A stretch of DNA of 64,000 bases from positions 80,967-144,966 of the forward strand of contig JAJEEV010000013.1 of assembly GCA_022820805.1 (NCBI GenBank), read 5' to 3'. This document shows, piece after piece, positions 12,942 to 64,000 of the stretch (the first letter of the stretch is position 1; each line of letters begins with the position of its first letter). This DNA comes from Acidimicrobiia bacterium (GTDB taxonomy: Bacteria; Actinomycetota; Acidimicrobiia; Acidimicrobiales; Aldehydirespiratoraceae). The notes under the pieces were generated by a model. That model made no database searches, was not told the origin of the DNA, and was given only the letters and a program-made list of their open reading frames with translations. Both the position numbers and the translations under genes were made by a program.

Positions 12942-12973
12942 GCGCAGCCGGACGACCAGGGAGCACCCCGAGC

Positions 12974-16836: not shown

Positions 16837-16868
16837 GGGGGCTCCGGCATGCGAGTCAGGAGCCGACC

Positions 16869-18950: not shown

Positions 18951-18984
18951 GCACACCGAGCGACCTGCCGGCGGTGACACTGCC

Positions 18985-49226: not shown

Positions 49227-49991
49227 CTAGTTGATGTGGCGGGCCGGGCACCAGTTGAAGTCGGTGAGGACCAGCCGGCGCGACACCGGCCCGAAGGCCG
49301 TGACGGAGGCGAGGCTCACCCGCAGGCGCATGATCATCTCAGCGCCGCCGCCGAGCAGCCACACCACGGCCGATTTGATGGGGGTGGCGTGGGTCACCAC
49401 CAGAATGTTGCTCGTCGTGGCCTCCTCGGCGAGCTCCGCCACCGCCTCCCCGACCCGCCCGTGCAGGCAGGCCATCGACTCGCCCCCGGGCGGCATGTAG
49501 GATATGTCGGAGGCCCACGCCGCCCCGAGCTCGGCCATGACTTCGGAGATCCGGCGGTCGTCATAGGCACCGAAGTCGATCTCCATCCACCGGTCGTCGA
49601 CCGTGGTCGGCGCATCGGCCAGACCAGCCGCCCGCGCCGTCTGCTGGGTGCGACGGCGCGACGACACCACCACCCGGTCCACCGGCCAGCGCTCCCGCAG
49701 AGCCTCCCCCACCAGTGCAGACTGCTCGAGACCGACCTCGTCGAGAGGCGAGTCGAACTGGCCCTGGAGCCGCGCCTGGGCGTTGTTGGGCGTTCGGCCG
49801 TGACGCAGGAGGATCAGGATGAACCGATGGTAGATGGCGGAGTCGTGGCTCGCCCCGCCCCCGCGCGGCGACGGCCGTACCGGCCCTGATGGCCCGCGGT
49901 TCGTCGCGAACTGCCTGACAGTGGCAATAATCGGGGCATGGCATCCGTGGCCGGCGCCGATCCCGACCCTGGCAGAGAGCGCATAGAACAT
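49227..49991 (-). CDS. Histidine phosphatase (phosphoglycerate-mutase-like) family protein; start unresolved
   Basis: RHG motif ILILLRHGRTPNN and a second His in LVVTHATPIK. The only in-frame ATG/GTG/TTG upstream of RHG is the ATG at 49991. That start adds ~60 non-family residues and overlaps the divergent regulator's annotated start. Confidence 0.65.
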   Translation of the reverse strand: MFYALSARVGIGAGHGCHAPIIATVRQFATNRGPSGPVRPSPRGGGASHDSAIYHRFILILLRHGRTPNNAQARLQGQFDSPLDEVGLEQSALVGEALRERWPVDRVVVSSRRRTQQTARAAGLADAPTTVDDRWMEIDFGAYDDRRISEVMAELGAAWASDISYMPPGGESMACLHGRVGEAVAELAEEATTSNILVVTHATPIKSAVVWLLGGGAEMIMRLRVSLASVTAFGPVSRRLVLTDFNWCPARHIN

Positions 49992-50618
49992 CGGCTCAGC
50001 GAGGCTCTCGGCTCGCCGGTCTCCGCCGCGGAGCTGTGCCGGGTGGTGGGCAGCCGGGTCCGGGAGCTGCGCCAGGCGATGAACATGACGATGTCGGCCT
50101 TCGCCGCGGAGGCCGACATCTCGCTGGGGATGCTCTCCAAGATCGAGCACGGCCAGAGCGCGCCGAGCCTGTCGACGCTGGTGCGGCTGGCCGCGACGGC
50201 GCGGGTGCCGGTCACCGCGCTGTTCAGAGGACTCGACGAGGAGCACGACCTGGTGATCGTGAGATCCGGCGAGGGCCACGAGATCCACCACCAGGGCGGC
50301 GGCCCCGGTCGGCTCTACCAGGACCTCGGCACCCTGCGCGGCCCCAACCGGGTGATCGAGCCGATGATCACCACCATCACCGAGCCGGGCGGCGTCTTCC
50401 CGCTCTACCAGCATCCCGGCGTCGAGTTCCTGCACGTGCTCGAGGGATGCCTGGACTACGGCTACGGCGGGACCGCCTACCGCCTGAACGCGGGCGACAC
50501 CATGCAGATCCACGGCGAGGTGGCCCACGGTCCGGTCGAGCTGGTGCAGTTGCCGATCCGGTTCATCTCAATAAAGGTGTACCCGGCCACCGAGCCGCGG
50601 GCCGCGGCAGGAGGATGA
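49938..50618 (+). CDS. XRE-family HTH transcriptional regulator with C-terminal cupin sensor domain
   Basis: HTH region VGSRVRELRQAMNMTMSAFAAEADISLGMLSKIEHG. Cupin region YQHPGVEFLHVLEG...MQIHGEVAHG. The GTG at 50043 is an alternative start that removes the overlap with the phosphatase gene. Confidence 0.85.
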   Translation: MASVAGADPDPGRERIEHRLSEALGSPVSAAELCRVVGSRVRELRQAMNMTMSAFAAEADISLGMLSKIEHGQSAPSLSTLVRLAATARVPVTALFRGLDEEHDLVIVRSGEGHEIHHQGGGPGRLYQDLGTLRGPNRVIEPMITTITEPGGVFPLYQHPGVEFLHVLEGCLDYGYGGTAYRLNAGDTMQIHGEVAHGPVELVQLPIRFISIKVYPATEPRAAAGG

Positions 50619-50664: not shown

Positions 50665-50892
50665 GTGGGCCTGCTGATCGTCGTCGACTGGATCAGCGAC
50701 ACCGGCGGTGCCCGCAGCAACATCGTCCTCTGGATCATGCTGGCCGCGGCCGTGGGTCTCACGGTCTGGGAGTGCCGCGAGCGGGGCTACCGGACCATGG
50801 TGCTGTTGTGGTGGGTTAGCTTCGTGGCCATCACCCATGTGTTAGGATACATCATCCTGCGCTTCTTCGTCCGCCCGCCCCGCGGGGACTGA
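50665..50892 (+). CDS. Small two-TM membrane protein (hypothetical)
   Basis: GTG start and a GC3-rich frame. Hydrophobic segments IVLWIMLAAAVGLTVW and MVLLWWVSFVAITHVLGYIIL. Confidence 0.5.
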   Translation: MGLLIVVDWISDTGGARSNIVLWIMLAAAVGLTVWECRERGYRTMVLLWWVSFVAITHVLGYIILRFFVRPPRGD

Positions 50893-50894
50893 CC

Positions 50895-51308
50895 ATGCCC
50901 CTCCTGCCAGCGCGGCCAGACCCTGAACCGGCCGGCGGGCGGCCGACCAACCCATTCATGCGGTTGGTCAGGCTGCCAGGGCGCACCAAGCTGCTCATAG
51001 CGCTCGGGGTGCTGCTGGTGGTCATCTTTGCAACCCGGAGCTGCTCGGGCGTGGACATCACCCAGGAGGAGGCGATCGCGGCCGCCCGCACCGCGCTGGC
51101 GGCCCACCCGGACGCGTTCGAGCCCGCCAGGGTCGAGGCCAAGGTGCTGCGCCAGGGCTTCCCGCCCGATCCCGTGTGGGTCGTGGTGCTAACCGTCGCC
51201 GATCCCGACGGCAGTTCCGAGGACTTCCTTCACCACGCCGGGATCTGGGTGGACGCCAAGACGGCCCAAGTCCGCCAGATCGACATCAGCGGCTCCGCCC
51301 AGGGCTAG
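50895..51308 (+). CDS. Membrane-anchored PepSY-like domain protein (hypothetical)
   Basis: One TM (LLIALGVLLVVIF), then ITQEEAIAAARTAL...GIWVDAKTAQVRQIDISG, which resembles PepSY-type domains. It starts 2 nt after the previous stop. Confidence 0.5.
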   Translation: MPLLPARPDPEPAGGRPTNPFMRLVRLPGRTKLLIALGVLLVVIFATRSCSGVDITQEEAIAAARTALAAHPDAFEPARVEAKVLRQGFPPDPVWVVVLTVADPDGSSEDFLHHAGIWVDAKTAQVRQIDISGSAQG

Positions 51309-51430: not shown

Positions 51431-51569
51431 TCGCGAATCTGAGGAAAGGATCGCGAACGCTCGGAAAGGTCTCACGGGCCCGAAGAGAACCGGCCGCAAC
51501 GACTGTGCTACTGTTTGCGGATTCCGGCCTGACCGGTCGGAACGGACAAGAGGAATTGGGGGTGAGTCA

Positions 51570-52958
51570 ATGAGCACAGCTATTGTGTTCACTGAGGCTT
51601 ACTACTTCTTCACTGTCGCGCTCATGTGGTTCTTGCACGTGGGCTTCATGACATATGAAGCCGGTGTATCACGGCGCAAGAACATCATGTCAACGGCAAT
51701 GAAGAACATCATGACGATAGCCGTCGTCACGCCGACGTTCTACTATTTCGGCTGGTACGTGTACTTCTGCATGCAGGAGGGCCTCAAGTTCACGGTGTCG
51801 GCCAACGGAGGCAGCCCCGCAGGACTTGAGGGGCTCTACTTCTGCGGCGACGGCTACGGACTGCCGTGGGACGGCTCCGCAGGACCGAACCTCGGCGACA
51901 ACATCACCGGCGTGTTCTGGGCGGCATTCGTGCTGTTCTCCTGGACCACCGGATCCATCATGTCGGGCGCGGTGCTGGAGCGCATCCGCATCTCGGCCTA
52001 CCTCTGGCTGACCGCCCTGATGGGCGGCATCGTGTGGGTCGTCGCGGCGGCCTGGGGCTGGAGCTACGGAGGCTGGTTGACGGTTCATTTCGGCTACCAC
52101 GACTTCGCGGCGTCCGGCGTGGTCCACGGCATCTCGGGCATCTTCGCTCTGGGCGTGCTGTTGAACCTCGGACCGAGGATCGGGCGGTACGATGCCGACG
52201 GCAACGCGAGAACGTTCAAACCCCACAACGTGCACATGACACTGATGGGGCTGATGATCATCTTCTCGGCGTTCTACGCGTTCTACGCGGCGTGCCTGGC
52301 GATCACCGCCGACACCACTCCGGGTTGGGCCAACATCTACTTCAGCCCGACCACGCTGTCGGCCATCACCTACACCATCACCATGGGCTTCGCGGGCGGC
52401 TTCGCCGGCGGCTACATCTTCTCGCGGGGAGATCCCTTCTGGACCATTTCCGGAGGCCTCGCCGGTGTTGTGACCGTCTCGGCAGGAGCCGACATCTACA
52501 GCCCGAACCTGGTCCTGGTCCTCGCCTTCGTCTCGGCCGGGATCGCCTTCCACGTCGGCAACTGGTTCGACACGAAGGCCCGCATCGACGATGCGGTAGG
52601 GGCGGTGACCGTCCACGGCGTGATGGGCTTCATCGGTGTGATCTGCGTCGGCATCTTCGCAGCCGGGTACCCGACCGGTCCGGCCGGCGTGGAGACCAGC
52701 TTCCTGGGCCAGCTCGTCGGAGCTACCGCTCTGATACCGCTGGCGTTCTTCACGGGTTACATCGCCTCGTGGATCCTCAAGAAACTGAACCTCTTGAGGG
52801 TGCCGGCCGAGGTCGAGGTCGAGGGCCTCGACATGGCCGAGTACGGCATGGACTTCTTCCCGGAGCACGGCCGAGCCGACGAGACGATCATCCAGGCCGA
52901 CGGCACCGAAGTGGTCTCTGCGGGCGTCCTGCAGGGCGACTTCAACTCCAACCGCTAG
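51570..52958 (+). CDS. amt: Ammonium (possibly methylammonium) transporter, Amt/MEP/Rh family
   Basis: ATG at 51570 inside track ORF 51336... Family motifs LHVGFMTYEAGVSRRKN and DFAASGVVHGISGIFALGVLLNLGPRIGRY. About 11 TM segments. Confidence 0.92.
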   Translation: MSTAIVFTEAYYFFTVALMWFLHVGFMTYEAGVSRRKNIMSTAMKNIMTIAVVTPTFYYFGWYVYFCMQEGLKFTVSANGGSPAGLEGLYFCGDGYGLPWDGSAGPNLGDNITGVFWAAFVLFSWTTGSIMSGAVLERIRISAYLWLTALMGGIVWVVAAAWGWSYGGWLTVHFGYHDFAASGVVHGISGIFALGVLLNLGPRIGRYDADGNARTFKPHNVHMTLMGLMIIFSAFYAFYAACLAITADTTPGWANIYFSPTTLSAITYTITMGFAGGFAGGYIFSRGDPFWTISGGLAGVVTVSAGADIYSPNLVLVLAFVSAGIAFHVGNWFDTKARIDDAVGAVTVHGVMGFIGVICVGIFAAGYPTGPAGVETSFLGQLVGATALIPLAFFTGYIASWILKKLNLLRVPAEVEVEGLDMAEYGMDFFPEHGRADETIIQADGTEVVSAGVLQGDFNSNR

Positions 52959-53116
52959 CGCCGGGTGTCCGCCTCATGGCTGCAGTTCGCAGGCGCCGTG
53001 GCCCTCATGTACGCGGTGGTCCTCGCCGCCGGGTACTGGGGCAAGCGCAAGCGTACACAGCAGCAGGAGGCGCACCAACGCAACGACCGACTTCGTTCAC
53101 GTAACAGGAGGACTGA

Positions 53117-53341
53117 ATGAACACCTTCCCATACGACAGCTGGGAGGCCGCGCTGGAAGCAGCGGACGGCACCACCGGGTACTTCACCTGGGGACCCGGC
53201 GGCAACACTGGCTCGGTGGTCCTGGCCATCCTCGGCATCGCCGTCTCGGTGGTGATGGCCGTGATGATTACCGCCCGCGAGAACAAGATTCTCAACGACG
53301 CGGCTGACCAGCTCGCCGACAAGTACAACTCGGAGGGCTGA
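53117..53341 (+). CDS. Small single-TM protein (hypothetical)
   Basis: Strong AGGAGGA RBS and a GC3-rich frame. TM segment VVLAILGIAVSVVMAVMI. Confidence 0.6.
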   Translation: MNTFPYDSWEAALEAADGTTGYFTWGPGGNTGSVVLAILGIAVSVVMAVMITARENKILNDAADQLADKYNSEG

Positions 53342-53342
53342 C

Positions 53343-53465
53343 ATGGCCAACAAGCAGTTTGAGCTCAAGGGCAAGCAGGGCCACGACAAGGGCATCGAGA
53401 TGGCCATTGTCGTTGTCTGCCTGGCCATGGTCGTCTTCACGATCATCGCCATCCAGGCTCTCTGA
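53343..53465 (+). CDS. 40-aa micro membrane protein (hypothetical; below the ORF-track cutoff)
   Basis: My own reading: the ATG at 53343, 1 nt after the previous stop and preceded by GGAGGG, gives MANKQFELKGKQGHDKGIEMAIVVVCLAMVVFTIIAIQAL, with the stop at 53463-53465. Confidence 0.42.
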   Translation: MANKQFELKGKQGHDKGIEMAIVVVCLAMVVFTIIAIQAL

Positions 53466-53490
53466 CGACTGACTCACCCCAATCAAGGCA

Positions 53491-53529
53491 GGCTGGCGCC
53501 GCGTCGTCCATGACGATGCGGCGCCAGCC
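53491..53529 (+). terminator. Very stable 18-bp hairpin ending the amt / small-gene unit
   Basis: ggctggcgccgcgtcgtc / cat / gacgatgcggcgccagcc. It has 12 perfect GC-rich bp plus 6 more with one G-U, 26 nt after the stop at 53465. No U-tract. Confidence 0.55.
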
Positions 53530-53566
53530 CCTGCATTCAGGGATTTGACCTGATTGACCTGCGGCT

Positions 53567-53980
53567 GTGAACCTCCCACGTAAGCGGATCGCCCAGGTGT
53601 GCGGGGCCGTCGCGGCCCTGACGACGTTCCTGCCGTGGCAGACGACCGCCGGAGCCAGCGGCGCGGAATCGGTGGCCGGCACCAGCACCAGCGCGGGACA
53701 GCTCGTCCTGGTCGTGTGCCTCGTCACGGTCGGGCTGGTGCAGGTGGGCTGGCGGCCCGCGTGGATCGGTGCCGGCTTCGGGGCCGCCACCGCGATCCGC
53801 GAGCTGTTCGACCGCGAGGCCGACCCCGCGTGGGGTCTCGGCGTAGTGATCGCCGCCTGTGTTGTGGCCACGGTCCTGCTGGTCTGGGACATGTTCGCCA
53901 ACGTCGCCGGTCCGGGCGACGACCCCGGCGGGCCCGGAGGACGGGGACTGTCGGGACCCCTGGGCCGGCGCCGAGGCTGA
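53567..53980 (+). CDS. Hypothetical polytopic membrane protein
   Basis: Track ORF with a GTG start. Hydrophobic segments VCGAVAALTTFLPW, LVLVVCLVTVGLV and GVVIAACVVATVLLVW, with a Gly/Pro/Arg tail. Confidence 0.42.
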   Translation: MNLPRKRIAQVCGAVAALTTFLPWQTTAGASGAESVAGTSTSAGQLVLVVCLVTVGLVQVGWRPAWIGAGFGAATAIRELFDREADPAWGLGVVIAACVVATVLLVWDMFANVAGPGDDPGGPGGRGLSGPLGRRRG

Positions 53981-54046
53981 ATCTGTTGCACCGGTGAGAC
54001 TCCGCCGCGAGACTGGCTGGAGCGCACACACTCTCGGGAGGCGGCC

Positions 54047-56440
54047 ATGACGGCGATTGTGTTGGAGCAGCCCCGGGTCCTGGTGCCCGGGCTGTTGATG
54101 GTTGAACCCGGCGTGGAGCGCTACCGGGTGACCGGAGGCGGCGCGACCGTGCTGGCGCTCGCGGCCGGTGACGAACTGGAGGTGGTGGACCCAGAGGGGC
54201 GCCAGCGCTGCGAGCTGGTCGCCTTCGACGCGGACGGGCGGTCCGACCCTGGATTGCTCCGCCCAGCCAGATCCGGGGGGAACGGCTCCAGCCCAGCATC
54301 AACCCACGAGCCCGCCGCTCTCGACATCCTGTCGGCCGACCTCAAGGACGCACGACGGGTGCGGGCCGGTCTCGAGCGGGCCGGCATCGACCTGACGGCT
54401 GTGCGTGCAGCCCGCCCCCTGAGGCTGCTCGACAGCGACACGCCCCCGGGGACCCGAGCCCGGGTGGTGGCTCACGCCGACGTGGCCTGCGTGGTGGCGG
54501 CTCCGGGCGAGGCCATGTCGTCCCACGGCGGGGTCCCGCCCACCGACCTGATCGCATACGTGCACCGCCACGACCCGGCCGCCAACGACGGCAGACCCCT
54601 GCTTCCCGCTCCGCTGGCCGACCCCAGCCAGGACTTCATCATCGAGCACAGCACCGCCGTCGCCTACCAGGTGGCCAAGGGAGACTGGTTCCAGGTGCTC
54701 GACATCGAGGGCCGGCAGTGCTCGGACTTCCAGTGCTTCGCGACAGCCGATCTCGAAGCGGGCGCCGAGCTCTCCCTCGACGCCACCATCACCCGCACCC
54801 TCATGGGCGCCACCTGCCCTGCTCCCGGCCTGTACTCGAAGTTCTACAACGCCAGGATGCAGCCCCTCGTGGAGGTGGTCCAGGACACCGTTGGCCGCCA
54901 CGACACGTTCAACACGGCCTGCAACGCCCGGTACTACGAGGAGATGGGCTACCCCGGCCACGTCAACTGCACCGAGAACATCAACGGCGTGCTCAGCCCC
55001 TACGGCGTGGCTCGCCGCCGGGGTTGGGAGGCCATCAACTTCTTCTACAACACCCAGCTGGACGACGCCAACCAGATCTACCTCGACGAGCCGTGGTCCC
55101 GTCCCGGCGACTATGTGCTGCTGCGAGCCCTGGAGGATCTGGTGTGCGTGTCCACCTCGTGCCCCGACGACGTCGACGCGGCCAACGGCTGGAACCCCAC
55201 CGACATCGCGGTGCGCGTCTACCCGGCCGCCAACCGGTTCAAGAAAGCGACGGCTGTTCGAATGACTGCAGACTCCGAGGCAAAGCTCACCGCCGAGACC
55301 GGGTTCCACCCCCGCACGTCGGCCCTGACCCGCAGCTTCACCGAGTACTGCGGCTACTGGCTGGCCGACTCCTACACGGGGCACGGCCCCATCAACGAGT
55401 ACTGGGCCTGCCGGCAGGCCGCGGCGGCCATCGACCTGTCGCCGCTGCGCAAGTACGAGGTGACCGGGCCCGACGCCGAGCTGCTGATGCAGACCTGCGT
55501 CACCCGCAATGTCCGCAAGCTGGCCGACGGCCAGGTGTCCTACACCGCGATGTGCCTCGACACCGGCGGCATGATCGACGACGGCACCGTGTTCCGGCTC
55601 GGGCAACAGAACTTCCGCTGGATCGGGGGGCAGCTCGGGTACAGCGGTGTGTGGCTCCGGGAGCAGGCCCAGCGCCTGGGGCTGCAGGTCTGGGTGCGCA
55701 GCTCCACCGAGCAGCTCCACAACCTGCAGGTCCAGGGCCCCAACAGCCGCCGCATCCTCGAGCAGGTCGTCTGGACCCGGCCCGACCAGCCGACGATCGC
55801 CGAGCTCGGATGGTTCCGGTTCACCATCGCACGCATCGGCGACTTCGACGGGATCCCGCTGGTGGTGTCCCGCACGGGCTACACCGGCGAACTCGGGTAC
55901 GAGGTGTTCTGCCACCCCTCCGACGCCCCGGCGGTATGGGACGCCGTCTTTGAGGCCGGCGCCGACCACGGCCTGGTGCCGATGGGGCTGGCCGCGCTCG
56001 ACATCCTGCGCATCGAGTCCGGCCTGGTGTTCGCCGGCTACGAGTTCTGCGACCAGACCGACCCCTACGAGGCCGGCATCGGCTTCACCGTGCCGCTCAA
56101 GACCAAGGAGGACGACTTCATCGGCCGCGACGCCCTCCTGGGGCGCCGTGACAACCCGCAGCGCCGTCTGGTGGGGCTGGAGGTGGCCGGGGGCGAACCG
56201 GCCGCCCACGGCGACGGTGTGTACGTCGGGCGCAACCAGGTCGGCGTCGTCACCAGCGCCACCATCTCGCCCATCCTCCGCAAGAACATCGCGCTGTGCC
56301 GCATGGCGGTGGAGCACTCCGAGATCGGCACCGGTGTCGAGGTCGGCAAGCTCGACGGACACGAGAAGCGCATCGCGGCCGAGGTGGTGCGGTACCCGTT
56401 CTACGACCCGGAAAAGACCAGGGTCCGCGGCCTGTCCTGA
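54047..56440 (+). CDS. tdm: Trimethylamine-N-oxide demethylase-like protein: DUF1989 region fused to a GcvT-type aminomethyltransferase (tetrahydrofolate-binding) domain
   Basis: GGGAGG RBS. DUF1989-type core KGDWFQVLDIEGRQCSDFQCF...GRHDTFNTACNARYYEEMGYPGH. The C-terminal half carries GcvT folds (YEVTGPDAELLMQ..., SRTGYTGELGYEVF). This two-part architecture is that of characterised Tdm. Confidence 0.82.
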   Translation: MTAIVLEQPRVLVPGLLMVEPGVERYRVTGGGATVLALAAGDELEVVDPEGRQRCELVAFDADGRSDPGLLRPARSGGNGSSPASTHEPAALDILSADLKDARRVRAGLERAGIDLTAVRAARPLRLLDSDTPPGTRARVVAHADVACVVAAPGEAMSSHGGVPPTDLIAYVHRHDPAANDGRPLLPAPLADPSQDFIIEHSTAVAYQVAKGDWFQVLDIEGRQCSDFQCFATADLEAGAELSLDATITRTLMGATCPAPGLYSKFYNARMQPLVEVVQDTVGRHDTFNTACNARYYEEMGYPGHVNCTENINGVLSPYGVARRRGWEAINFFYNTQLDDANQIYLDEPWSRPGDYVLLRALEDLVCVSTSCPDDVDAANGWNPTDIAVRVYPAANRFKKATAVRMTADSEAKLTAETGFHPRTSALTRSFTEYCGYWLADSYTGHGPINEYWACRQAAAAIDLSPLRKYEVTGPDAELLMQTCVTRNVRKLADGQVSYTAMCLDTGGMIDDGTVFRLGQQNFRWIGGQLGYSGVWLREQAQRLGLQVWVRSSTEQLHNLQVQGPNSRRILEQVVWTRPDQPTIAELGWFRFTIARIGDFDGIPLVVSRTGYTGELGYEVFCHPSDAPAVWDAVFEAGADHGLVPMGLAALDILRIESGLVFAGYEFCDQTDPYEAGIGFTVPLKTKEDDFIGRDALLGRRDNPQRRLVGLEVAGGEPAAHGDGVYVGRNQVGVVTSATISPILRKNIALCRMAVEHSEIGTGVEVGKLDGHEKRIAAEVVRYPFYDPEKTRVRGLS

Positions 56441-56443
56441 CCG

Positions 56444-56471
56444 CAGCCCGCAGCCCGCTGCCCGCTGCCCG
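56444..56471. repeat. Heptanucleotide tandem repeat (cagcccg x2, ctgcccg x2)
   Basis: Read directly between the convergent stops at 56440 (+) and 56479 (-). It overlaps a hairpin ccgctg...cagcgg (56462-56485). Confidence 0.85.
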
Positions 56472-56478
56472 GGCGGGG

Positions 56479-57363
56479 TCAGCGGCGCAGGACCTTGGGC
56501 ACGATCGTGCCGAAGTCCGACGGCAGCTTCACGATCGTCACGCCGCACTCCCGCATGAGCTGGACCTTCTCGGCCGCCGACTCGCCCACGGTGGAGACGA
56601 TGGCCCCGGCGTGGCCCATGGTCCGCCCCCTGGGCGCGGTGAGCCCCGCGATGTAGCCCACCACCGGCTTGTGCATGTGATCACGGGCGTACTGGGCGGC
56701 CTGCGCCTCCTGGAGCCCGCCGATCTCGCCGATCATCACGATCGCCTCGGTGTCGCCGTCCCTCTCGAACCGCTTGAGGTGATCCATGAAGGAGCTGCCG
56801 TTGATGGGGTCGCCGCCGATGCCGACGCTGGTGCTCACCCCGATGCCGACTGCTTTGAGCTGTGATGCCGCCTCGTAGCCGAGGGTCCCGGACCGGCTGA
56901 CGATGCCGACGGGACCCCGCTCGTAGATGTGCGGGGGCATGATGCCCATCATCGCCCGATCCGGGCTGATCACCCCGGCGCAGTTCGGTCCGATCAGGCA
57001 CATCCGGCCGGCGTGCTGGTAGCGCCGCTGGTAGCGCTTCACCTTGATCATGTCCTGGACCGGGATGCCCTCGGTGATGCACACGCAGTACTCGATCCCG
57101 GCGTCGGCCGCCTCCATGATGGCGTCGGCCGCGAAGGGCGGCGGCACGAACACGATGCTGGCGGTCGCCTCCGTGGCTGCCACTGCCTGCTTCATGGTGT
57201 CGAACACGTCGACGCCGCAGTGGCTGCTGCCGCCCCGTCCCGGGGTCACCCCGCCCACCACGTTGGTCCCGTACTCGAGCATCTCGGTTGTGTGGAAGGT
57301 GGCTATCCGTCCGGTTATGCCCTGCACCAGCACCGGCGTCTGCTCATCGAGGATGATGCTCAT
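56479..57363 (-). CDS. mtkB: Malate-CoA ligase (malate thiokinase) alpha subunit, SucD-like
   Basis: [18 protein letters not shown]..., [11 protein letters not shown] and [22 protein letters not shown]. From memory it is closer to Methylorubrum MtkB than to SucD. It lies next to mcl. The start overlaps the mtkA stop (ATGA). Confidence 0.8.
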
Positions 57364-58535
57364 CTGGCCGCGCTCCCTTCCAGGGACTCCACCGCTCTCA
57401 CTCCGGCCTCGGCCAGCGAGTCCGCGGTCACCACCCCGACTCCGGCCTCGGACAGGATGCGCCGTCCCTCCTCGACGTTGGTCCCCGACAGCCGCACCAC
57501 CACCGGGACCTTGGGCTCGAGCTGCTGCACGGCTTGGACCACACCATCCGCCACCCAGTCGCAGCGGTTGATGCCAGCGAAGATGTTGACCAGCACGGCC
57601 TCGACGTTCTCGTCGGAGAGCACCAGCCGGAAGGCCTTCAGGACCCGTTCGGGCGAGGCACCGCCCCCGATGTCGAGGAAGTTGGCCGGCTCGCCGCCCG
57701 CGTGCTTGATCATGTCCAGGGTGGCCATGGCCAACCCGGCGCCGTTGATGATGCAGCCGATGCTGCCGTCGAGCCCCACGTAGCTGAGACCGCGGTCGAT
57801 GGCAGTCCGCTCCCGGGGGTCCTCCTGGGACTTGTCCCGCAGCTCGGACACGTCCTGGTGCCGGAACAGGGCGTTGTCGTCGAAGGTCATCTTGGCGTCC
57901 AGAGCCACCAGACGGCCGTCGGAGGTGACCGCCAGCGGGTTGATCTCGAGCATGGTGGCGTCCAGATCGCCGAAGGTGCGGTAGCAGGCCGACATGACCT
58001 GGACCGCCTGCGGGACCAGCGCCGCCTCGAGTCCCACCGCGAAGGCGATCTCGCGGGCCTCGAACGCCTGGAGTCCCACCGCCGGCTCGACGTTCACCCG
58101 CACGATGCCGGCGGGATCGCGGGCCGCGATCTCCTCGATGTCCATCCCGCCCTCGGCGGAGGCCACGACCATCACCCGCTCGGCCGAGCGGTCGAGCACG
58201 AACCCCAGGTAGATCTCCCGCTCAGCGGCGACGGCGGCCTCGACATAGAGCCGGTACACGCCTATGCCCCGCTCGCCGGTCTGCTGGGTCACCAGCCGCT
58301 TCCCGAGCAGGTCGTCGGCCGCGTCCCAGACCTCCCGCTCGTTGCTGCACATCCTGATCCCGCCGGCCTGGCCCCGGGCGCCGGTATGGACCTGAGCCTT
58401 GACGACCCACTGCTCGCCACCGATCTCCGAGGCCCGGTAGGTCGCCTGCTCGGGGCTGTAGGCCAGACCTCCCTCGGGAATGGCCACGCCGTAGTCGGCC
58501 AGGATCGCCTTGGCCTGATACTCGTGAATCTCCAT
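57360..58535 (-). CDS. mtkA: Malate-CoA ligase (malate thiokinase) beta subunit, SucC-like
   Basis: ATG at 58535 with an [23 protein letters not shown].... The segment [17 protein letters not shown] matches the MtkA form (SucC has NIFGGIVRCD). [27 protein letters not shown] is likewise MtkA-like. Confidence 0.82.
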
Positions 58536-58597
58536 GAACGTCCCTCCTGTCGCTCGATCCCTGTGCGCTCGCCGCGGAGACCGCCTGCGATCCCGCT

Positions 58598-59542
58598 TCA
58601 GCACCCCCGGGCCGAGATGGCCCCGGCCGTCTCGACCACGTTGGCGGCCATCCGGGCTGAGGCCGCGTCGATCATGCGGCCGTCGAGCTGGGCGGCGCCC
58701 CGGCCGGCCGCGGCCGCCTCCTCCAGTGCTTGGAGCACCCGGCGGGCCTGATCCACCTCGGCGGGTGGAGGGGTGAACACCTCGTTGGCCAGATCGACCT
58801 GCGACGGGTGGATGGCCCACTTGCCGTCATAGCCGAGAGCCGCGGCCCGGCGGGCCCCCGCGGTGAAGCCCTCGGGATCACCGAAGTCCCCGAAGGGTCC
58901 GTCGATGGCGCGCAGCCCGTTGGCCCGGCACGCCACCAGCATGCGCGACAGCGCCGAATGCCACTGGTCGCCCGGATAGTCGGGGTTGAGCCCTCCGATG
59001 GTGATCGTGCGAGCACGGCACGAGGCTGCGTAGTCCGCCACCCCGAAGTGGAGCGCCTCGAGCCGCGGGCTCGACGCGGCCACCGCCTCCACGTTGGCCA
59101 TTCCCAGCGCCGTCTCGATGAGGGCCTCCACGCCGATGCGGTGGTCCAGGCCCACCGCCTGCTCGATCTGGGTGACGATCGCGTCGACGGTGTAGATGTC
59201 GCCGGGCACCCCCACCTTGGGGACCAGGATCGTGTCGAGCCGAGCCCCGGCCTGCTCCACCACATCGATCAGATCGCGGTACATGTAAGGCGTGTCGAGG
59301 CCGTTGATCCGCACCGACACCGTCTTCTTGGCCCGGTGCCAGTCGATGTTGCCCAGGGCCTCGATGACGTTGCGCCGGGCCGCTTCCTTGTCGTCGGGAG
59401 CGACCGCGTCCTCCAGGTCCAGGAAGACGTAGTCGGCCCGGCCGGCCGCGGCCTTCTCGAACAACTCGGGCCGCGAGCCGGGCACCGCCAACTCGCTGCG
59501 GTGCAGCCGACGCTTCGCCTCGGTGATCTGATGATGGCTCAT
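58598..59542 (-). CDS. mcl: L-malyl-CoA / beta-methylmalyl-CoA lyase (HpcH/CitE family)
   Basis: The ATG at 59542 gives [23 protein letters not shown].... [26 protein letters not shown] and [19 protein letters not shown] track the remembered MclA sequence almost motif for motif. Confidence 0.87.
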
Positions 59543-59652
59543 ACTCGACGCCTCCCCGTCTGTCATCGAGGTACCCCGGTTGACGGCCAACGGCGAGAAT
59601 GGACCCGCACATCGGCCGTCTCTCTTGCGACCTCCAAGCCTGAACCACTACT

Positions 59653-59668
59653 GTGATGAAAGTATCAC
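59653..59668. promoter_or_regulatory. 16-bp palindrome GTGATgaaagtATCAC in the mcl / aminotransferase divergent intergenic region
   Basis: Perfect 5-bp arms with a 6-bp spacer inside an AT-rich patch (59641-59680), between divergent starts at 59542 (-) and 59693 (+). Confidence 0.3.
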
Positions 59669-59692
59669 TAATTGGATGGGTGGTCCAGTCCG

Positions 59693-60787
59693 ATGCAGCA
59701 CGCCGAAAGAATCCTCATGGGCCCAGGCCCGTCGAATCCCTATCCAGAGGTCATCGAGGCCTTCACCCGGCCGGTGATGGGCCACCTGGACGGCGACTTC
59801 CTCGAGTTGCTCGACGACACCTGCGACCGCCTGCGAGCGGTGTTCCGCACACAGAACGCCCTGACCTTTCCCGTGTCGGGAACCGGGTCGGCCGGTATGG
59901 AGGCCGCGTTCGTGAACCTGGTCTCCGGAGGCGAGACAGTGGTCGTGGGCGTGAACGGGGTGTTCGGCGAGCGCATGTGCGACGCAGCAGCCCGGTGCGG
60001 CGCGCGAGTCGTGCGAGTGGACGAGGAATGGGGCACGCCGCTGGAGCCGCAGCGCATCCTGGAAGCTCATCCCGACCCGGCCGTGATCGCGGTCGTCCAC
60101 GCGGAGACATCCACCGGGGTTCGCAACGATCTGGCCGGGCTGGGCTCGGCCAAGGGGGACGCGCTGCTGCTGGCGGACTGCGTCACGTCGCTCGGCGGGA
60201 TCGACGTTCGCCTCGACGACTGGGGCGTGGACATCGCCTTCAGCGGAACCCAGAAGTGCCTCGGGGTGCCGCCGGGCCTGGCGCCCGTCAGCGTCTCGCC
60301 CCGGGCCGTCGAGCGGATGCACTGCCGGCCCCAGTCGTGGTACTTCGACATGGGGATGATCGCCGACTACGTCAACGGCGCCGGCGCGAGGGCCTATCAC
60401 CACACCGCTCCGATCTCGATGATCTACGCGCTCCACGCCGGCCTGGGCGTGGTGCTGGACGAGGGGCTGGAGGAAGCCCACGCCCGGCACCAGGAATGCG
60501 GGGACATGCTCCAGGCCGGACTCGAGGCCCGGGGATTCGACCTGGTGGCTCCGAGCGAGGCCCGCCTGCCCCAGCTCACCTCGGTGCACGTGCCCGAGGC
60601 GCGCCTGCCACCAGACACGGGCGAGGCCGACATCCGCCGAGTGCTGCTCGAGCGCTACGGCATCGAGATCGGCGGCGGGCTGGGTGCCCTGGCGGGCAAG
60701 TGCTGGCGTATCGGTTGCATGGGACACACCGCCCGGGCCCGCAACGTGACGCTGGTTCTGGCAGCCCTCGACGAGGTGCTCGCCTAG
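59693..60787 (+). CDS. Class V aminotransferase, alanine/serine-glyoxylate aminotransferase type
   Basis: The ATG at 59693 gives MQHAERILMGPGPSN; the track start at 59672 is TTG. PLP-lysine context FSGTQKCLG and the C-terminal WRIGCMGH are typical of the AGXT/Sga family. Confidence 0.85.
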   Translation: MQHAERILMGPGPSNPYPEVIEAFTRPVMGHLDGDFLELLDDTCDRLRAVFRTQNALTFPVSGTGSAGMEAAFVNLVSGGETVVVGVNGVFGERMCDAAARCGARVVRVDEEWGTPLEPQRILEAHPDPAVIAVVHAETSTGVRNDLAGLGSAKGDALLLADCVTSLGGIDVRLDDWGVDIAFSGTQKCLGVPPGLAPVSVSPRAVERMHCRPQSWYFDMGMIADYVNGAGARAYHHTAPISMIYALHAGLGVVLDEGLEEAHARHQECGDMLQAGLEARGFDLVAPSEARLPQLTSVHVPEARLPPDTGEADIRRVLLERYGIEIGGGLGALAGKCWRIGCMGHTARARNVTLVLAALDEVLA

Positions 60788-60875
60788 CGGCTAGTTTCGC
60801 CCCCGCGCGTTGGCATCAGGGTGCGCTAGGTTTTACTGTCACTACCGATACACATAATCACAGGGGGGATTCTCC

Positions 60876-62222
60876 ATGACTCGAGTAGCTGTCATCGGTG
60901 CCGGGCCGTGCGGGCTGTCGCAGTTGCATGCCTTCGCCAGCGATTCCGGGGCAGGCGGCGCAGACGCGCCCGAGATCGTCTGCTACGAGAAGCAGTCCGA
61001 CTGGGGCGGGCTCTGGAACTACGACTGGCGCACCGGGCTCGATGAGCACGGCGAGCCCTGCCACGCCAGTATGTACCGCTACCTGTGGTCCAACGGCCCC
61101 AAGGAGTGCCTGGAGTTCGCCGACTACAGCTTCGAGGAGCACTTCGGCAAGCCGATCGCGTCGTTCCCGCCCCGCGAGGTCCTCTACGACTACATCATCG
61201 GACGGGCCAGCCGCAGCGGCTTCCGCGACCAGATCCGCTTCAACCATCCGGTGCGCCGCGTCAGCCGCTCGGCCGGTGGCGACGGGTTCACGGTCACTGC
61301 CCACGACCAGGCCAACGACACCGACACCAGCGAGGACTTCGACTACGTGGTGGTGTCCACCGGGCACTTCTCCATCCCCAACATGCCCCACTACCCCGGC
61401 TACGAGACCTTCGGCGGCACGCTGCTGCACGCCCACGACTTCCGCGACGCAGTGCAGTTCGAGGACCGGAACGTCCTCGTGATCGGATCGAGCTACTCGG
61501 CCGAGGACATCGCCTCACAGCTCTGGAAGTACGGCGCCCGCTCGGTGATCTGCACGTCCCGCAGCGGCCCAATGGGCTTCGACTGGCCCGACGGCATCAC
61601 TGAGAGGCCCATCCTGACCCATGTCGACGGCCGCACCGTGCACTTCGTCGACGGGTCCACTGCCGACGTGGACGCCATCGTCTCCTGCACCGGCTACCTG
61701 CACCACTTCCCGTTCGTGGACGACGACCTGCGCCTGGTCACCGCCAACCGGCTGGCCACCTCCATGCTGTACCGCGGCGTGGTGTTCCAGCCCGAGAACC
61801 GGATCCTCTACCTGGGGATGCAGGACCAGTGGTACACGTTCAACATGTTCGACGCCCAGGCCTGGTACGCCCGCGACGTGATCCTGGGCCGCATCGAGCT
61901 GCCCGGCGCGGCCGAGCAGGCCCGCTGGATCGAGGAGCGCCAGGCAGAGGAGGACGCGCTGGCAGACGACTACGCGTGCATCGACTTCCAGGGCGCCTAC
62001 ACCCAGGACCTGGTGGACCAGACCGACTATCCCGACTTCAACACGCCGCTGGTCAACCAGATGTTCTACGACTGGAAGAAGCACAAGAAGCAGTCGATCA
62101 TCGGCTACCGCGACCACGGGCACACCTCGCCGCTGACGGGCACGGTGGCACCCATCCACCACACGTCGTGGGAGGACGCCCTCGACGACTCGCTGGAGTC
62201 CTACCTGGCCGACTCGGCCTGA
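60876..62222 (+). CDS. tmm: Trimethylamine monooxygenase (bacterial flavin-containing monooxygenase)
   Basis: AGGGGGGA RBS. FAD motif VIGAGPCG, FMO motif FGGTLLHAHDF and NADPH motif VIGSSYSAEDI. The stretch CYEKQSDWGGLWNYDWRTGLDEHGEPCHASMYRYLWSNGPKECLEFADYSFEEHFGKPI is near-identical in pattern to remembered Tmm sequences. Confidence 0.9.
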   Translation: MTRVAVIGAGPCGLSQLHAFASDSGAGGADAPEIVCYEKQSDWGGLWNYDWRTGLDEHGEPCHASMYRYLWSNGPKECLEFADYSFEEHFGKPIASFPPREVLYDYIIGRASRSGFRDQIRFNHPVRRVSRSAGGDGFTVTAHDQANDTDTSEDFDYVVVSTGHFSIPNMPHYPGYETFGGTLLHAHDFRDAVQFEDRNVLVIGSSYSAEDIASQLWKYGARSVICTSRSGPMGFDWPDGITERPILTHVDGRTVHFVDGSTADVDAIVSCTGYLHHFPFVDDDLRLVTANRLATSMLYRGVVFQPENRILYLGMQDQWYTFNMFDAQAWYARDVILGRIELPGAAEQARWIEERQAEEDALADDYACIDFQGAYTQDLVDQTDYPDFNTPLVNQMFYDWKKHKKQSIIGYRDHGHTSPLTGTVAPIHHTSWEDALDDSLESYLADSA

Positions 62223-62250: not shown

Positions 62251-63504
62251 ATGGACGATGTGATCATCGTCGGGGGCGGGATCGGCGGGCTCACGCTGGC
62301 GCTCATGCTGCACGAGCGCGGCATCGGCGCACGCGTCTACGAGGCCGCGCCGGAGATCAAGCCCATCGGGGTGGGGATCAGCCTGCTTCCCCACGCCAGC
62401 AAGGAGCTGGGTCTGCTGGGACTCACCGGCGCCCTGGCCGACGTGGCCGTGACCACCAGGGAGTCCTGCTTCTTCAACCGGTTCGGGCAGTTCGTCTACT
62501 CCGAGCCCGTGGGCCGCTACGCCGGCTACGACTGGCCCCAGTTCCAGATCCACCGGGGCGATCTGCAGCAGGTGCTGTACGAGGCCTACGTCGAACGGGT
62601 CGTCGGGGGCGCCGGGCGAGTGCTGACCGGGCATCGCTGCACCGGCACCGACTCGGACGCCCGGGGAGCGGTGGCCCACTTCGTCGACTCCAGCACCGGC
62701 GCCCGGCTGCAGGCGGCGCGGGGCGCCGCGGTCATCGGCTGCGACGGCATTCACTCCGCGGTGCGGAGGCAGTTCTTCGGTGACGAGGGCCCGCCCGTCT
62801 ACTCCGGTGTCAACATGTGGCGGGGCACCACCGTCTGGGAGCCGTTCCTCAGCGGGTCCACCTACCTCAGGGCCGGCTGGCTGACAGTCGGAAAGATGGT
62901 GATCTACCCGATCCGCCACAACGTCGACGGCCGGGGCCGCCAGCTCGTCAACTGGGTGGCCGAGGTGCAGACCGACTCCTACAACGAGCAGGACTGGAAC
63001 CGGGTCGGCCGCCTCGAGGACTTCCACCACGTCTTCGCCGACTGGACCTTCGACTGGCTCGATGTGGCCGGGCTGATCCGGGACTCCGAGCAGATCCTCG
63101 AGTATCCGATGGTGGACCGGGATCCGCTGCCGAGATGGACCCACGGACGGGTGACGCTGCTGGGCGACGCGGCCCATCCCATGTACCCGCGCGGCTCCAA
63201 CGGCGCGGGCCAAGCCATCCTGGACGCAAGGGCGCTGGCCGACGCCCTGCAGTCGCGAGGGTCGGTGACCGAAGCCCTGCAGGCCTACGAGGACCAGCGA
63301 CTCGCAGCCACCGCCGCAGTGGTGCACGCCAGCCGGTCGGCGCCCCCCGACGTGATCCTGAAGGCGGTCCACGAGCGCACCGGGGACCGCCCCTTCGGGC
63401 GCATCGACGACGTGATCACCGCGCAGGAGATGGCGGCCCTGTCCGACAGCTACAAGCGAGTCGCCGGGTACCACCGCGACTCCCTCGCGACACCCTCGTC
63501 CTAG
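62251..63504 (+). CDS. FAD-dependent aromatic-ring-hydroxylase-like monooxygenase
   Basis: IIVGGGIGGLTLA dinucleotide fold, GCDGIHSAVR, and LLGDAAHPMYPRGSNGAGQAILDA. Confidence 0.85.
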   Translation: MDDVIIVGGGIGGLTLALMLHERGIGARVYEAAPEIKPIGVGISLLPHASKELGLLGLTGALADVAVTTRESCFFNRFGQFVYSEPVGRYAGYDWPQFQIHRGDLQQVLYEAYVERVVGGAGRVLTGHRCTGTDSDARGAVAHFVDSSTGARLQAARGAAVIGCDGIHSAVRRQFFGDEGPPVYSGVNMWRGTTVWEPFLSGSTYLRAGWLTVGKMVIYPIRHNVDGRGRQLVNWVAEVQTDSYNEQDWNRVGRLEDFHHVFADWTFDWLDVAGLIRDSEQILEYPMVDRDPLPRWTHGRVTLLGDAAHPMYPRGSNGAGQAILDARALADALQSRGSVTEALQAYEDQRLAATAAVVHASRSAPPDVILKAVHERTGDRPFGRIDDVITAQEMAALSDSYKRVAGYHRDSLATPSS

Positions 63505-63552: not shown

Positions 63553-64000
63553 ATGCGTGCCGGTTCACTTGAGATCGCTCCTCCCCTCTATGAGTTCATC
63601 GCTGTCGAGGCCCTTCCGGGAACCGGCGTGCAGATCGACGAGTTCTGGAGCGCGCTGCAGTCCATCCTGACCGACCTCGGACCCCGCAACGCCGCGCTGT
63701 TGAGCCGGCGCGACGAACTGCAGTCCCAGATCGACGACTGGCACCGGGCGGCCCGGGCCGAGGGCCGGGACAGCGACGGCGAGGCCTACGCCAACTTCCT
63801 GCGCGACATCGGCTACCTGCGCTACATGGACGGGTCGGTCACCGCCACGACGGCCAATGTGGACGCCGAGATCGCCGAGGTGGCCGGACCGCAGCTGGTG
63901 GTGCCCCTCGACAACGCCCGCTACGCGCTGAACGCGGCCAACGCCCGCTGGGGAAGCCTCTACGACGCGCTGTACGGCACCGACGTGCTCAGCGAGTCGG
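63553..64000 (+). CDS. glcB: Malate synthase G, N-terminal part (3' end beyond the window)
   Basis: ALPGTGVQIDEFW... and GPQLVVPLDNARYALNAANARWGSLYDALYGTDV match the GlcB N-terminus. The reading frame runs off the window. Confidence 0.87.
   Translation, partial: MRAGSLEIAPPLYEFIAVEALPGTGVQIDEFWSALQSILTDLGPRNAALLSRRDELQSQIDDWHRAARAEGRDSDGEAYANFLRDIGYLRYMDGSVTATTANVDAEIAEVAGPQLVVPLDNARYALNAANARWGSLYDALYGTDVLSES

Follow-up and report, generated by a model that had tools for sequence, protein, structure and literature searches.

The 64,000-nucleotide stretch of contig JAJEEV010000013.1 analyzed here (the window) contains tdm, for a trimethylamine N-oxide (TMAO) demethylase, and tmm, for a trimethylamine (TMA) monooxygenase, with a cassette of malate and glyoxylate genes between them. 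Homology and gene order make it probable that this region belongs to a methylated-amine catabolic island with a link to the serine cycle in sponge-associated Acidimicrobiia. The island would extend over ~35 kb, the region in the window being its 5' half.

In the proposed pathway, Tmm would oxidize TMA to TMAO, and Tdm would convert TMAO to dimethylamine (DMA) and pass the methyl carbon to tetrahydrofolate (THF) via its GcvT domain. The cassette would take malate to malyl-CoA and on to glyoxylate and acetyl-CoA, glyoxylate being transaminated to glycine. Gene content and position suggest that glycine would accept methylene-THF, so that one-carbon (C1) units derived from TMA would enter a serine-cycle-type route. 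The conversion of DMA to monomethylamine (MMA) would be either missing or carried out by a candidate flavoprotein, DAO408, encoded just beyond the window, and MMA would be converted to glutamate, C1 and ammonium by GmaS-MgsABC and a SoxB-like flavoprotein. A divergent Amt channel, four small membrane proteins and an XRE-cupin regulator would form the rest of the conserved core.

Open reading frames (ORFs) of the window were selected for the distribution of G+C over codon positions that is usual in high-GC genomes and then scanned against Pfam and NCBIfam; the scan covered essentially all ORFs with this coding pattern in the 64 kb. Tdm was used as a query against one genome per GTDB species, and the comparison set consisted of 81 tdm loci, 35 of Acidimicrobiia and 46 proteobacterial, which are cited below by number (L004 and so on). 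ORFs in all 81 loci were taken from our own heuristic calls and BLASTP clustering, with a cross-check by tblastn with the window proteins. The flank examined in relatives was that within 10 kb of tdm, and the taxon labels are those of the public records.

Identity and descent of Tdm and Tmm

The two central genes are the following:

54047-56440, + strand: tdm, TMAO demethylase (TMAO to DMA plus formaldehyde/5,10-methylene-THF), recognized by NF053776, DUF1989 + GCV_T + GCV_T_C and PDB 9Q59
60876-62222, + strand: tmm, TMA monooxygenase (TMA + NADPH + O2 to TMAO), recognized by NF058570, solved flavin-containing monooxygenase (FMO)/Tmm structures and motifs

Tdm scored 1187 bits against the NCBIfam equivalog NF053776 "trimethylamine N-oxide demethylase" (cut-off 1100) and aligned end to end with the solved TMAO demethylase PDB 9Q59 at 893 bits, versus 195 bits for plain GcvT. 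It is composed of PF09347 (DUF1989) at residues 199-366, PF01571 (GCV_T) at 421-680 and PF08669 (GCV_T_C) at 706-787. Residues D219, C225, D227, H285, C292, H305, C308, C367 and C372 are each common to at least 97% of the 81 aligned Tdm sequences; these conserved Asp, Cys and His residues are attributed to the DUF1989 metal-binding region and would include its Zn or Fe ligands. Tmm reached 738.4 bits against NF058570 "trimethylamine monooxygenase" (cut-off 675), the match covering residues 3-445 of 448. Against the solved bacterial Tmm/FMO structures 8B2D, 2XVE/2VQ7, 5IPY/5GSN, 7D4K and 6KBW it scored 535-645 bits (611-645 bits for 8B2D, 2XVE, 2VQ7 and 5IPY), while other FMOs gave at most 183 bits. 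The FAD motif GAGPCG (residue 8), the FMO motif FGGTLLHAHDF (179) and the NADPH motif GSSYSA (204) conform to the patterns GxGxxG, FxGxxxHxxx(Y/F) and GxSxxA. Identity to the proteobacterial proteins is 57-66% for Tmm and 57-64% for Tdm. Because both proteins pass their equivalog cut-offs, match solved structures and keep the motifs or conserved residues, they are assigned as true orthologues and not as paralogues.

A first-pass annotation, made from the sequence by a model, had called both proteins clear homologues, ~4.4 kb apart. This is confirmed: a grouping with non-TMA FMOs or with non-Tdm paralogues was not seen, the gap measures 4,435 bp, and the coordinates given for the start of amt and the stop of tmm were exact. 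The same annotation had described Tmm and Tdm as characterized in Proteobacteria, which is correct for those organisms but too narrow, as Tmm has also been characterized in Myroides profundi, a member of the Bacteroidota (PMC7997507; PDB 7D4K).

In neighbor-joining trees, built without support values, the Tdm sequences of Acidimicrobiia group in a single clade, as do their Tmm sequences, and the two clades are congruent in internal structure. The exception is a contig labeled Acidiferrobacterales, which falls inside the Acidimicrobiia clade for Tdm only. The trees had been proposed as a test of horizontal transfer; since each gene forms one Acidimicrobiia clade apart from this one odd contig, recent transfer finds no support, and tdm and tmm are best regarded, from their phylogeny, as old residents of the class that were not recently imported. 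Two loci carry labels that disagree with their genes. L028, binned as Acidiferrobacterales, has an Acidimicrobiia-type Tdm but a proteobacterial-type Tmm, and L060, binned as Streptomycetaceae, resembles Methyloceanibacter in Tdm, Tmm and synteny alike. Both may be due to mis-binning or transfer.

The 35 best Tdm loci are all from Acidimicrobiia, except the contig labeled Acidiferrobacterales. By Tdm, the nearest named genomes are those of 'Ca. Aldehydirespirator' (85-91% identity), followed by 'Ca. Poriferisodalis' (81-83%) and other Acidimicrobiales (65-75%), and the proteobacterial loci come next at 57-64%. Poriferisodalaceae and Aldehydirespiratoraceae both include sponge-symbiont lineages (PMC11706023). 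The G+C content is 66-73% throughout the 64 kb. From this composition and from nearest genomes that all belong to Acidimicrobiia, the contig is placed as actinobacterial, in a sponge-associated member of the class; the actinobacterial character suspected in the first-pass annotation is thereby borne out, and a proteobacterial origin is not indicated. An identical Tmm protein was found on KELL22-1 metagenome scaffolds, which are 99.6-100% identical to the window across 13 kb. Scaffold L087, from the same strain, shows 100% identity to the window across 8.2 kb and was used to follow the island past the 3' end of the window.

Gene order of the island

Over the 35 Acidimicrobiia loci, the recurrent order is XRE-cupin regulator, s75, s131, amt, s73, s139, tdm, [mtkB, mtkA, mcl, sga], tmm, [FAD monooxygenase, glcB], DAO408. 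In many loci, DAO408 is followed on the opposite strand by the SoxB-like gene, a 150-aa gene, mgsC, mgsB, mgsA and gmaS. The number of these 35 loci that hold each element is as follows:

tmm, 32; amt, 24; regulator, 23; DAO408, 22; glcB, 12
cassette genes, 9-11; FAD monooxygenase, 10; gmaS or mgs genes within 10 kb, 8-10

Only ~80 bp separate tdm from tmm in the nearest relative, L004, as well as in L016 and all Poriferisodalis loci. A short block immediately upstream of tmm is retained whether tdm, sga or another gene precedes it, and may act as a promoter or operator:

60827-60870, + strand: conserved block of ~45 nt upstream of tmm, TAGGTTTTACT...CACCTAAYCACAGGGGGGAT, including the ribosome-binding site, recognized by conservation across loci

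N-methylglutamate genes beyond the window

The scan of the window detected neither a type III glutamine-synthetase-like GmaS nor MgsABC. The statement of the first-pass annotation that γ-glutamylmethylamide/N-methylglutamate genes were lacking thus holds for the window; it probably does not hold for the locus, as the evidence, in part from the same strain and in full from a close relative, places gmaS-mgsABC and a SoxB-like gene ~12-19 kb past its 3' end. In Poriferisodalis loci, DAO408 is followed by GmaS (type III glutamine-synthetase-like), MgsA (class-II amidotransferase), MgsB (GXGXG), MgsC (glutamate-synthase FMN-domain), a 150-aa protein and a SoxB-like flavoprotein. In the window's own strain, L087 continues with glcB, DAO408, STAS, a response-regulator/PP2C phosphatase, an RsbW-like kinase, a Peripla_BP_6 binding protein and a 779-aa histidine kinase, and then, on the minus strand, with MMPL, a 141-aa protein, MPAB and, at the end of the sequence covered, the SoxB-like gene. 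L085 holds in one piece gmaS, mgsA, mgsB, mgsC, the 150-aa gene, the SoxB-like gene, MPAB, MMPL and a kinase gene, the last with 91% nucleotide identity to the histidine kinase gene of L087. The order from gmaS to MMPL recurs in eight further related contigs. One of them, of 60.5 kb, equals in length the contigs recorded for a Tmm match (93%) and a DAO408 match (86%), so that the gmaS set, Tmm and DAO408 are probably encoded together on it. Between the partial SoxB-like protein of L087 and those of these relatives, identity is 90-95.5%. Expressed as window-equivalent positions, the kinase gene ends at ~72.7 kb, the SoxB-like gene starts at ~76.3 kb and gmaS is expected at ~82-83 kb.

The four-subunit MgdABCD was not found adjoining mgsC; this position holds only a 443-aa SoxB-like protein (70 bits versus a SoxB cut-off of 529) and the 150-aa protein. 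As the SoxB-like protein also accompanies gmaS-mgsABC in three proteobacterial loci (L064, L065 and L075), it is the more likely N-methylglutamate dehydrogenase. The small protein, of 143-156 aa (L010:16472-16939; L085:14657-15112), follows mgsC in 24 loci of both phyla and has no Pfam or NCBIfam match; it may be an unrecognized component of the N-methylglutamate pathway.

The genes between DAO408 and MMPL in the same strain deserve mention in their own right. In L087:11284-16939 (~67.1-72.7 kb window-equivalent), they comprise STAS, response-regulator/PP2C, RsbW-like and Peripla_BP_6 genes, the last overlapping the gene for the 779-aa kinase. The best NCBIfam match of the kinase is the TMAO sensor TorS, at 156 bits, in the sensor region and far below the cut-off. 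The binding protein and kinase may sense amine oxides in the manner of TorT/TorS and signal to a partner-switching module.

The dimethylamine step

Reference sequences of DmmD, DmmA, the PDR-type reductase and the DUF3445 subunit were taken from the annotated tdm-tmm-dmm cluster of Rhizobium leguminosarum pRLG202. In tblastn searches, DmmA, DmmB and DmmC found no match in the window or the 80 other tdm loci, except for a weak match to a reductase domain in one Methyloceanibacter locus, and DmmD matched only the GcvT (C-terminal) half of Tdm. No DUF3445/DmmA/PDR set was detected in the Pfam/NCBIfam scan of the window either. The observation that the window has no dmmDABC-type DMA monooxygenase is therefore upheld, and it extends to the neighborhood of tdm in the Acidimicrobiia relatives. 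No dmm was seen among the tdm neighbors of the proteobacterial loci L052, L073 and L076, which were sulfatase, major facilitator superfamily (MFS), HAD, UvrC and similar genes. It has been reported that tmm, tdm and gmaS occur without dmmDABC commonly in marine bacteria, including all SAR11, a situation termed a "metabolic bottleneck" (Lidbury et al. 2017, PMC5520151).

A candidate for this step, and the novel feature of these loci, is encoded 3' of tmm:

~65.8-67.0 kb window-equivalent, beyond the end of the window (scaffold L087): DAO408, DAO-family flavoprotein, 403 aa

DAO408 lies directly 3' of tmm or, in the lineage of the window, after tmm, the FAD monooxygenase gene and glcB. Of the 28 Acidimicrobiia loci whose flank is long enough for a judgment, 22 have it; of the 46 proteobacterial loci, none does. 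Its best NCBIfam matches are N-methyltryptophan oxidase (MTOX), monomeric sarcosine oxidase (MSOX) and SoxB, all below the cut-off (best 126 versus 257 bits), and its best PDB match is the L-proline dehydrogenase beta subunit 1Y56_B. An AlphaFold model (pLDDT 73) gave Foldseek TM scores of 0.6-0.67 to proline dehydrogenase, sarcosine oxidases, MTOX and dimethylglycine oxidase; since glycine oxidase and D-arginine dehydrogenase match equally well, the model confirms only the general DAO fold. DAO408 shares this FAD fold with the DAO superfamily (SoxB, MSOX, MTOX and the proline dehydrogenase beta subunit; hits 1Y56_B, 3AD9_B, 1EL5, 2UZZ and 1PJ5), several members of which oxidize the C-N bond of a secondary or tertiary amine. 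It differs from them in identity, which is 20-25% in the fold alignments, and in its context, which is tmm and tdm and not sarcosine or proline genes. The subfamily is narrow: all homologues among the 120 matches listed are at least 71% identical, and ~5 full-length representatives with more than 43% identity were found among 1.8 billion 50%-cluster representatives. The distant relatives P0406 and P0409 come from short contigs (1.7-2.3 kb) that show no remnant of tmm upstream.

By its position and chemistry, DAO408 is tentatively put forward as the best candidate for DMA oxidation. Two oxidative N-demethylations, those of DMA and N-methylglutamate, are unassigned, and they are matched by two DAO-family amine oxidoreductases in the island, DAO408 and the SoxB-like protein, which share 24% identity. 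It is possible, though with a good deal of reserve, that a Dmm-independent DAO408 turns DMA into methylamine and formaldehyde while the same island feeds C1 units into a serine-cycle-type route. A pathway that stops short of this is also conceivable. Here, TMA would be oxidized only to DMA, which would be excreted with a gain of one C1 unit per TMA (or the purpose would be to make or remove TMAO), gmaS-mgs would serve exogenous MMA, and DAO408 would have another substrate. Such a truncated pathway would fit the lack of DmmDABC in the window and in the 35 Acidimicrobiia loci, the same bottleneck in marine bacteria (PMC5520151), and the 6 of 28 assessable Acidimicrobiia loci in which DAO408 was not found. 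It sits less well with the fixed position of DAO408 after tmm in two sponge-associated lineages, against none in proteobacterial tdm loci, and with the coincidence of exactly two DAO-family oxidoreductases for exactly two unassigned N-demethylations. The Amt gene and a complete route from MMA to ammonium beside tdm suggest, moreover, that nitrogen is extracted. We hold the truncated pathway to be possible, not probable.

Other proteins were considered for the DMA step and set aside. A luciferase-like protein and an MFS protein beside gmaS in relatives proved to be a generic MsnO8-type luciferase-like monooxygenase and a DHA2 efflux pump, and are weak candidates. In the Acidimicrobiia loci without DAO408, and in L025, the genes between or after tdm and tmm gave no alternative DMA enzyme; they comprise a restriction-modification (R-M) pair and genes for a sigma factor, a peroxidase, an amidase, an amidohydrolase and a GATase.

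The malate/glyoxylate cassette

The genes that separate tdm and tmm, together with one further gene of glyoxylate metabolism at the end of the window, are these:

56479-57363, - strand: mtkB, malate-CoA ligase alpha subunit (SucD-like), CoA_binding + Ligase_CoA, NF004230 429 bits
57360-58535, - strand: mtkA, malate-CoA ligase beta subunit (malate thiokinase), NF010647
58598-59542, - strand: mcl, malyl-CoA lyase, PF03328, PDB 5UGR and 4L9Y
59645-59672, no strand given: two direct repeats (A/C)CACTA(A/C)T ~20 nt apart in the divergent mcl-sga promoter region, the same pair in L007, L008, L021 and L022
59693-60787, + strand: class-V glyoxylate aminotransferase of the AGT/SGAT family (probable sga), PF00266, PDB 1VJO and 1H0C
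63553-64000, + strand: glcB, malate synthase G, cut by the end of the window, NF002825 and TIGR01345 matching the N-terminal part

The "C2 genes" noted between tdm and tmm in the first-pass annotation are, specifically, the serine-cycle genes mtkAB, mcl and, probably, sga. MtkA scored 667.7 bits against NF010647 "malate-CoA ligase subunit beta" (cut-off 604), which exceeds its own SucC score of 528. The 4-bp overlap of mtkA and mtkB suggests that they are co-translated. Mcl scored 423 bits to 5UGR, a malyl-CoA/beta-methylmalyl-CoA lyase of the M. extorquens type, and 327 bits to 4L9Y. Sga gave 311 bits to PDB 1VJO (alanine-glyoxylate aminotransferase), 224 to 1H0C and 208 against BhcA, the cut-off of which is 650. 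It belongs to the AGT/SGAT/SPT class-V family, in which the amino donor is not readable from the sequence, and is probably a serine-glyoxylate aminotransferase. The full glcB encodes 734 aa in the same strain's scaffold (L001/L087). The direct repeats between mcl and sga are a possible operator.

Besides the window, the loci with the cassette between tdm and tmm are L005-L009, L020-L023 and L027. Two distant Acidimicrobiia, L029 and L033, hold sga alone at this place, and glcB follows tmm in 12 loci, which indicates that glyoxylate genes became tied to tdm and tmm repeatedly and long ago. As such genes recur around tdm and tmm, we read the cassette as functionally linked to TMA oxidation. The serine-cycle genes can be tied to Tdm in particular, because this enzyme would release a C1 unit whose acceptor is glycine.

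Several points weigh against the proposal of a methylated-amine island with a serine-cycle link. The cassette was not found in the closest relative, L004, nor in any Poriferisodalis locus, and hydroxypyruvate reductase, glycerate 2-kinase and PEP carboxylase were not recognized among the annotated ORFs of the window. The tdm-tmm junction also takes unrelated insertions: in L025 (Aldehydirespiratoraceae), it contains an R-M pair made up of a D12-class adenine methyltransferase and a HaeIII-type restriction endonuclease (L025:12279-14116), so that the junction evidently tolerates insertions and the position of the cassette could be coincidental. Malate synthase G beside Mtk and Mcl would create an ATP-wasting loop if all were co-expressed. 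The complete gmaS-mgs set was seen only in the 91%-identical relative and not in the window's own strain. In DAO408, no residue is diagnostic for DMA, the model is of moderate quality (pLDDT 73) and the closest relatives of solved structure have carboxylated amines as substrates; a Dmm or a DMA dehydrogenase could be encoded elsewhere in the genome.

Part of this evidence would also be accounted for if the cassette and glcB were general glyoxylate/C2 or C4 genes that had landed in a permissive site, uncoupled from TMA oxidation. The cassette is confined to ~11 of the 35 loci, the junction in L032 holds sigma-factor and peroxidase genes where L025 has its R-M pair, and tmm keeps its own upstream block regardless of the preceding gene. 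Clustered mtkAB, mcl and sga are, however, a signature of serine-cycle methylotrophs; chance insertion leaves unexplained the solitary sga of L029 and L033 and the glcB after tmm; and assimilation of the methylene-THF from Tdm needs glycine, formed from glyoxylate. An uncoupled cassette is accordingly given a rather low probability, and a functional link with TMA oxidation is preferred.

The serine-cycle genes of Methylobacterium (Methylorubrum) extorquens (sga, hprA, mtdA, fch, mtkAB, ppc and mcl) are the closest known system for this part. The likeness lies in the MtkA equivalog, the 5UGR-like Mcl and the adjacent AGT/SGAT aminotransferase; the difference is that the window has only four serine-cycle genes, with hprA, gckA, ppc, mtdA and fch not seen in it. 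The host here is an actinobacterium; cultured methylotrophs of the Actinomycetota are known to use the ribulose monophosphate pathway, and we know of no report of a serine-cycle-type assimilation route in this phylum.

Other C1 genes are present at a distance in the window. A methenyl-tetrahydromethanopterin cyclohydrolase (Mch) is encoded at 16671-17828 (+ strand; 274 bits versus an equivalog cut-off of 228.8), and an F420-type luciferase-like protein, the best match of which is Mer (178 bits versus a cut-off of 276), at 18937-19995 (+ strand); both are flanked by two short-chain dehydrogenase/reductase (SDR) genes. C1 genes linked to tetrahydromethanopterin and F420 are unusual in an Acidimicrobiia symbiont and could serve in the handling of free formaldehyde.

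Amt channel, small membrane proteins and regulator

Upstream of tdm, the conserved core contains the following:

49938-50618, + strand: XRE-type helix-turn-helix (HTH) + cupin regulator (PuuR-like), PF01381 HTH_3 + PF07883 Cupin_2
50665-50892, + strand: s75, small membrane protein with two hydrophobic segments, in 14 Acidimicrobiia loci, no Pfam match
50895-51308, + strand: s131, membrane-anchored protein with one N-terminal transmembrane (TM) segment and a ~80-aa domain, in 20 Acidimicrobiia loci, no Pfam match
51504-51542, + strand: amt leader, a -10-like TGTGCTAYTGT and then a GC-rich hairpin, conserved ahead of amt in loci of the Aldehydirespirator type
51570-52958, + strand: amt, divergent Amt-family channel, PF00909 217 bits
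53117-53341, + strand: s73, small single-TM protein, in 24 Acidimicrobiia loci, no Pfam match
53597-53980, + strand: s139, small multi-TM protein, in 17 Acidimicrobiia loci, no Pfam or NCBIfam match

The Amt protein scored 231 bits against TIGR00836 (NCBIfam amt), below the cut-off of 343, and its best PDB matches, the Amt-like 6EU6 and 8QJ3, reached only 94-108 bits. Both pore histidines are kept, and at the position of the usual Amt motif, GFNGGS in the aligned 6EU6, the protein has AFYAAC. A variant of this motif (FYAAC, FYVAC or FLGAC) was found, with the twin His kept, in 36 of 36 Amts linked to tdm or gmaS, in both Acidimicrobiia and Gammaproteobacteria (L004-L073). The window protein is a candidate channel for methylated amines or ammonium. 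As the variant is common to all 36, it may be speculated that the tdm-linked Amts are a dedicated subfamily for methylated amines or for sensing.

No TmoXWV-type importer was present in the window, and its Pfam/NCBIfam scan gave no glycine-betaine-type TmoX. The ABC systems of the window are of the SBP_bac_1 sugar type and the Bmp/PnrA type, none of them adjoining tdm or tmm, in agreement with the earlier remark that a TMAO-specific ABC transporter was lacking.

The four small proteins s75, s131, s73 and s139 bracket amt and were not found in proteobacterial loci. The XRE-cupin gene is syntenic with tdm in its 23 Acidimicrobiia loci, distant ones included; its best NCBIfam matches, PuuR and a benzoate-catabolism regulator, are at ~36 bits and below the cut-offs, and the protein is the probable regulator of the island. 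The hairpin of the amt leader was predicted at -17.5 kcal/mol and has no Rfam match; the function of the leader is putative. Rfam and promoter/terminator scans gave nothing above chance. A tRNA-Asn called by ARAGORN at 53055-53138 (- strand, 84 nt), which overlaps the start of s73, was not found in six relatives, has no Rfam support and is probably false.

The setting of tmm also bears on the substrate of its product. Tmm has been described in recent surveys as oxidizing dimethylsulfide (DMS) to dimethylsulfoxide (PMC13280387), and one might suppose that the enzyme serves mainly as a DMS or general soft-nucleophile oxygenase in the sponge and not in TMA catabolism. The tight, ancient linkage of tmm with tdm, with the tdm-type Amt and with N-methylglutamate genes across the class points instead to amine catabolism, and makes a main role in DMS oxidation improbable.

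Remaining genes of the window

Downstream of tmm lies one more enzyme gene:

62251-63504, + strand: group-A FAD monooxygenase, PhzS-like, NF005720 569 bits, 293 bits to PDB 2RGJ/3C96

This enzyme and a Rieske/flavin-reductase pair at 11772-13651 had been named as candidates for the DMA step. Quaternary amines are demethylated by Rieske oxygenases such as GbcA and CntA, and the FAD monooxygenase gene starts 29 bp past tmm, with which it is probably co-transcribed; yet its product resembles the PhzS group of aromatic hydroxylases and is a lineage-specific passenger found in 10 of the 35 Acidimicrobiia loci, all of one subclade, and the Rieske protein matches GbcA in the Rieske domain only (120 bits versus a cut-off of 670), is encoded 38 kb away and in no relative comes within 10 kb of tdm, so that either of them is most unlikely to be a DMA monooxygenase.

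The 5' end of the window (3-6443) is occupied by a fragment of a large modular polyketide synthase (MT-ER-KR-ACP-KS), which is followed by a phosphopantetheinyl transferase gene.

Relation to known systems and significance

TMA clusters of Proteobacteria, such as those of Ruegeria pomeroyi DSS-3, Methylocella silvestris BL2 and Rhizobium pRLG202, comprise tmm, tdm, dmmDABC, gmaS, mgsABC, mgdABCD, tmoXWV and amtB. The island resembles them in its orthologous Tmm and Tdm, in the linked Amt gene, in the linked gmaS-mgsABC, seen in full in relatives, and in the same chemistry from TMA through TMAO to DMA and from MMA to N-methylglutamate. It differs in that no dmmDABC was found, a single SoxB-like protein and the 150-aa protein stand in place of an adjoining mgdABCD, and the window has no TmoXWV. 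Serine-cycle genes and malate synthase, the DAO-family flavoprotein after tmm and the four small membrane proteins around amt are additions of the island. Its XRE-cupin regulator also contrasts with the AraC-type TmaR and TmoR, described in 2026; TMA catabolism and these regulators were reported for Alpha- and Gammaproteobacteria (PMC13390433).

The gap at DMA in an otherwise complete pathway is shared with SAR11 (Pelagibacterales), which have tmm, tdm, gmaS and tmoX but no dmmDABC (PMC5520151). The present case concerns a different phylum and a host-associated lifestyle, and has serine-cycle genes embedded. SAR11 oxidizes C1 units for energy.

The pathway itself is well known, and current NCBIfam equivalogs recognize both Tmm and Tdm. 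In our literature search, no paper was found that ties Tdm, the N-methylglutamate pathway or serine-cycle genes to Acidimicrobiia. Sponges are reported to contain carnitine-related compounds that yield TMA, and in a sponge metatranscriptome cntAB and FMO transcripts were assigned to Actinobacteria, and tdm and dmm to Alphaproteobacteria (PMC9999580).

The locus thus reveals a version of the TMA pathway that is old and vertically kept in a whole class of Actinomycetota. Acidimicrobiia include dominant sponge symbionts and some planktonic marine lineages, and the symbionts may be a real sink for methylated amines derived from the host and a means of recycling the nitrogen and carbon in them. With mtkAB, mcl and sga embedded in the island, it is possible that an actinobacterium assimilates C1 units through the serine cycle. 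In marine bacteria, the lack of a DMA step is a recognized gap (PMC5520151), for which a conserved flavoprotein in the right position offers a candidate alternative enzyme; if this assignment is true, DAO408 would close the dimethylamine bottleneck by a previously unrecognized enzyme.

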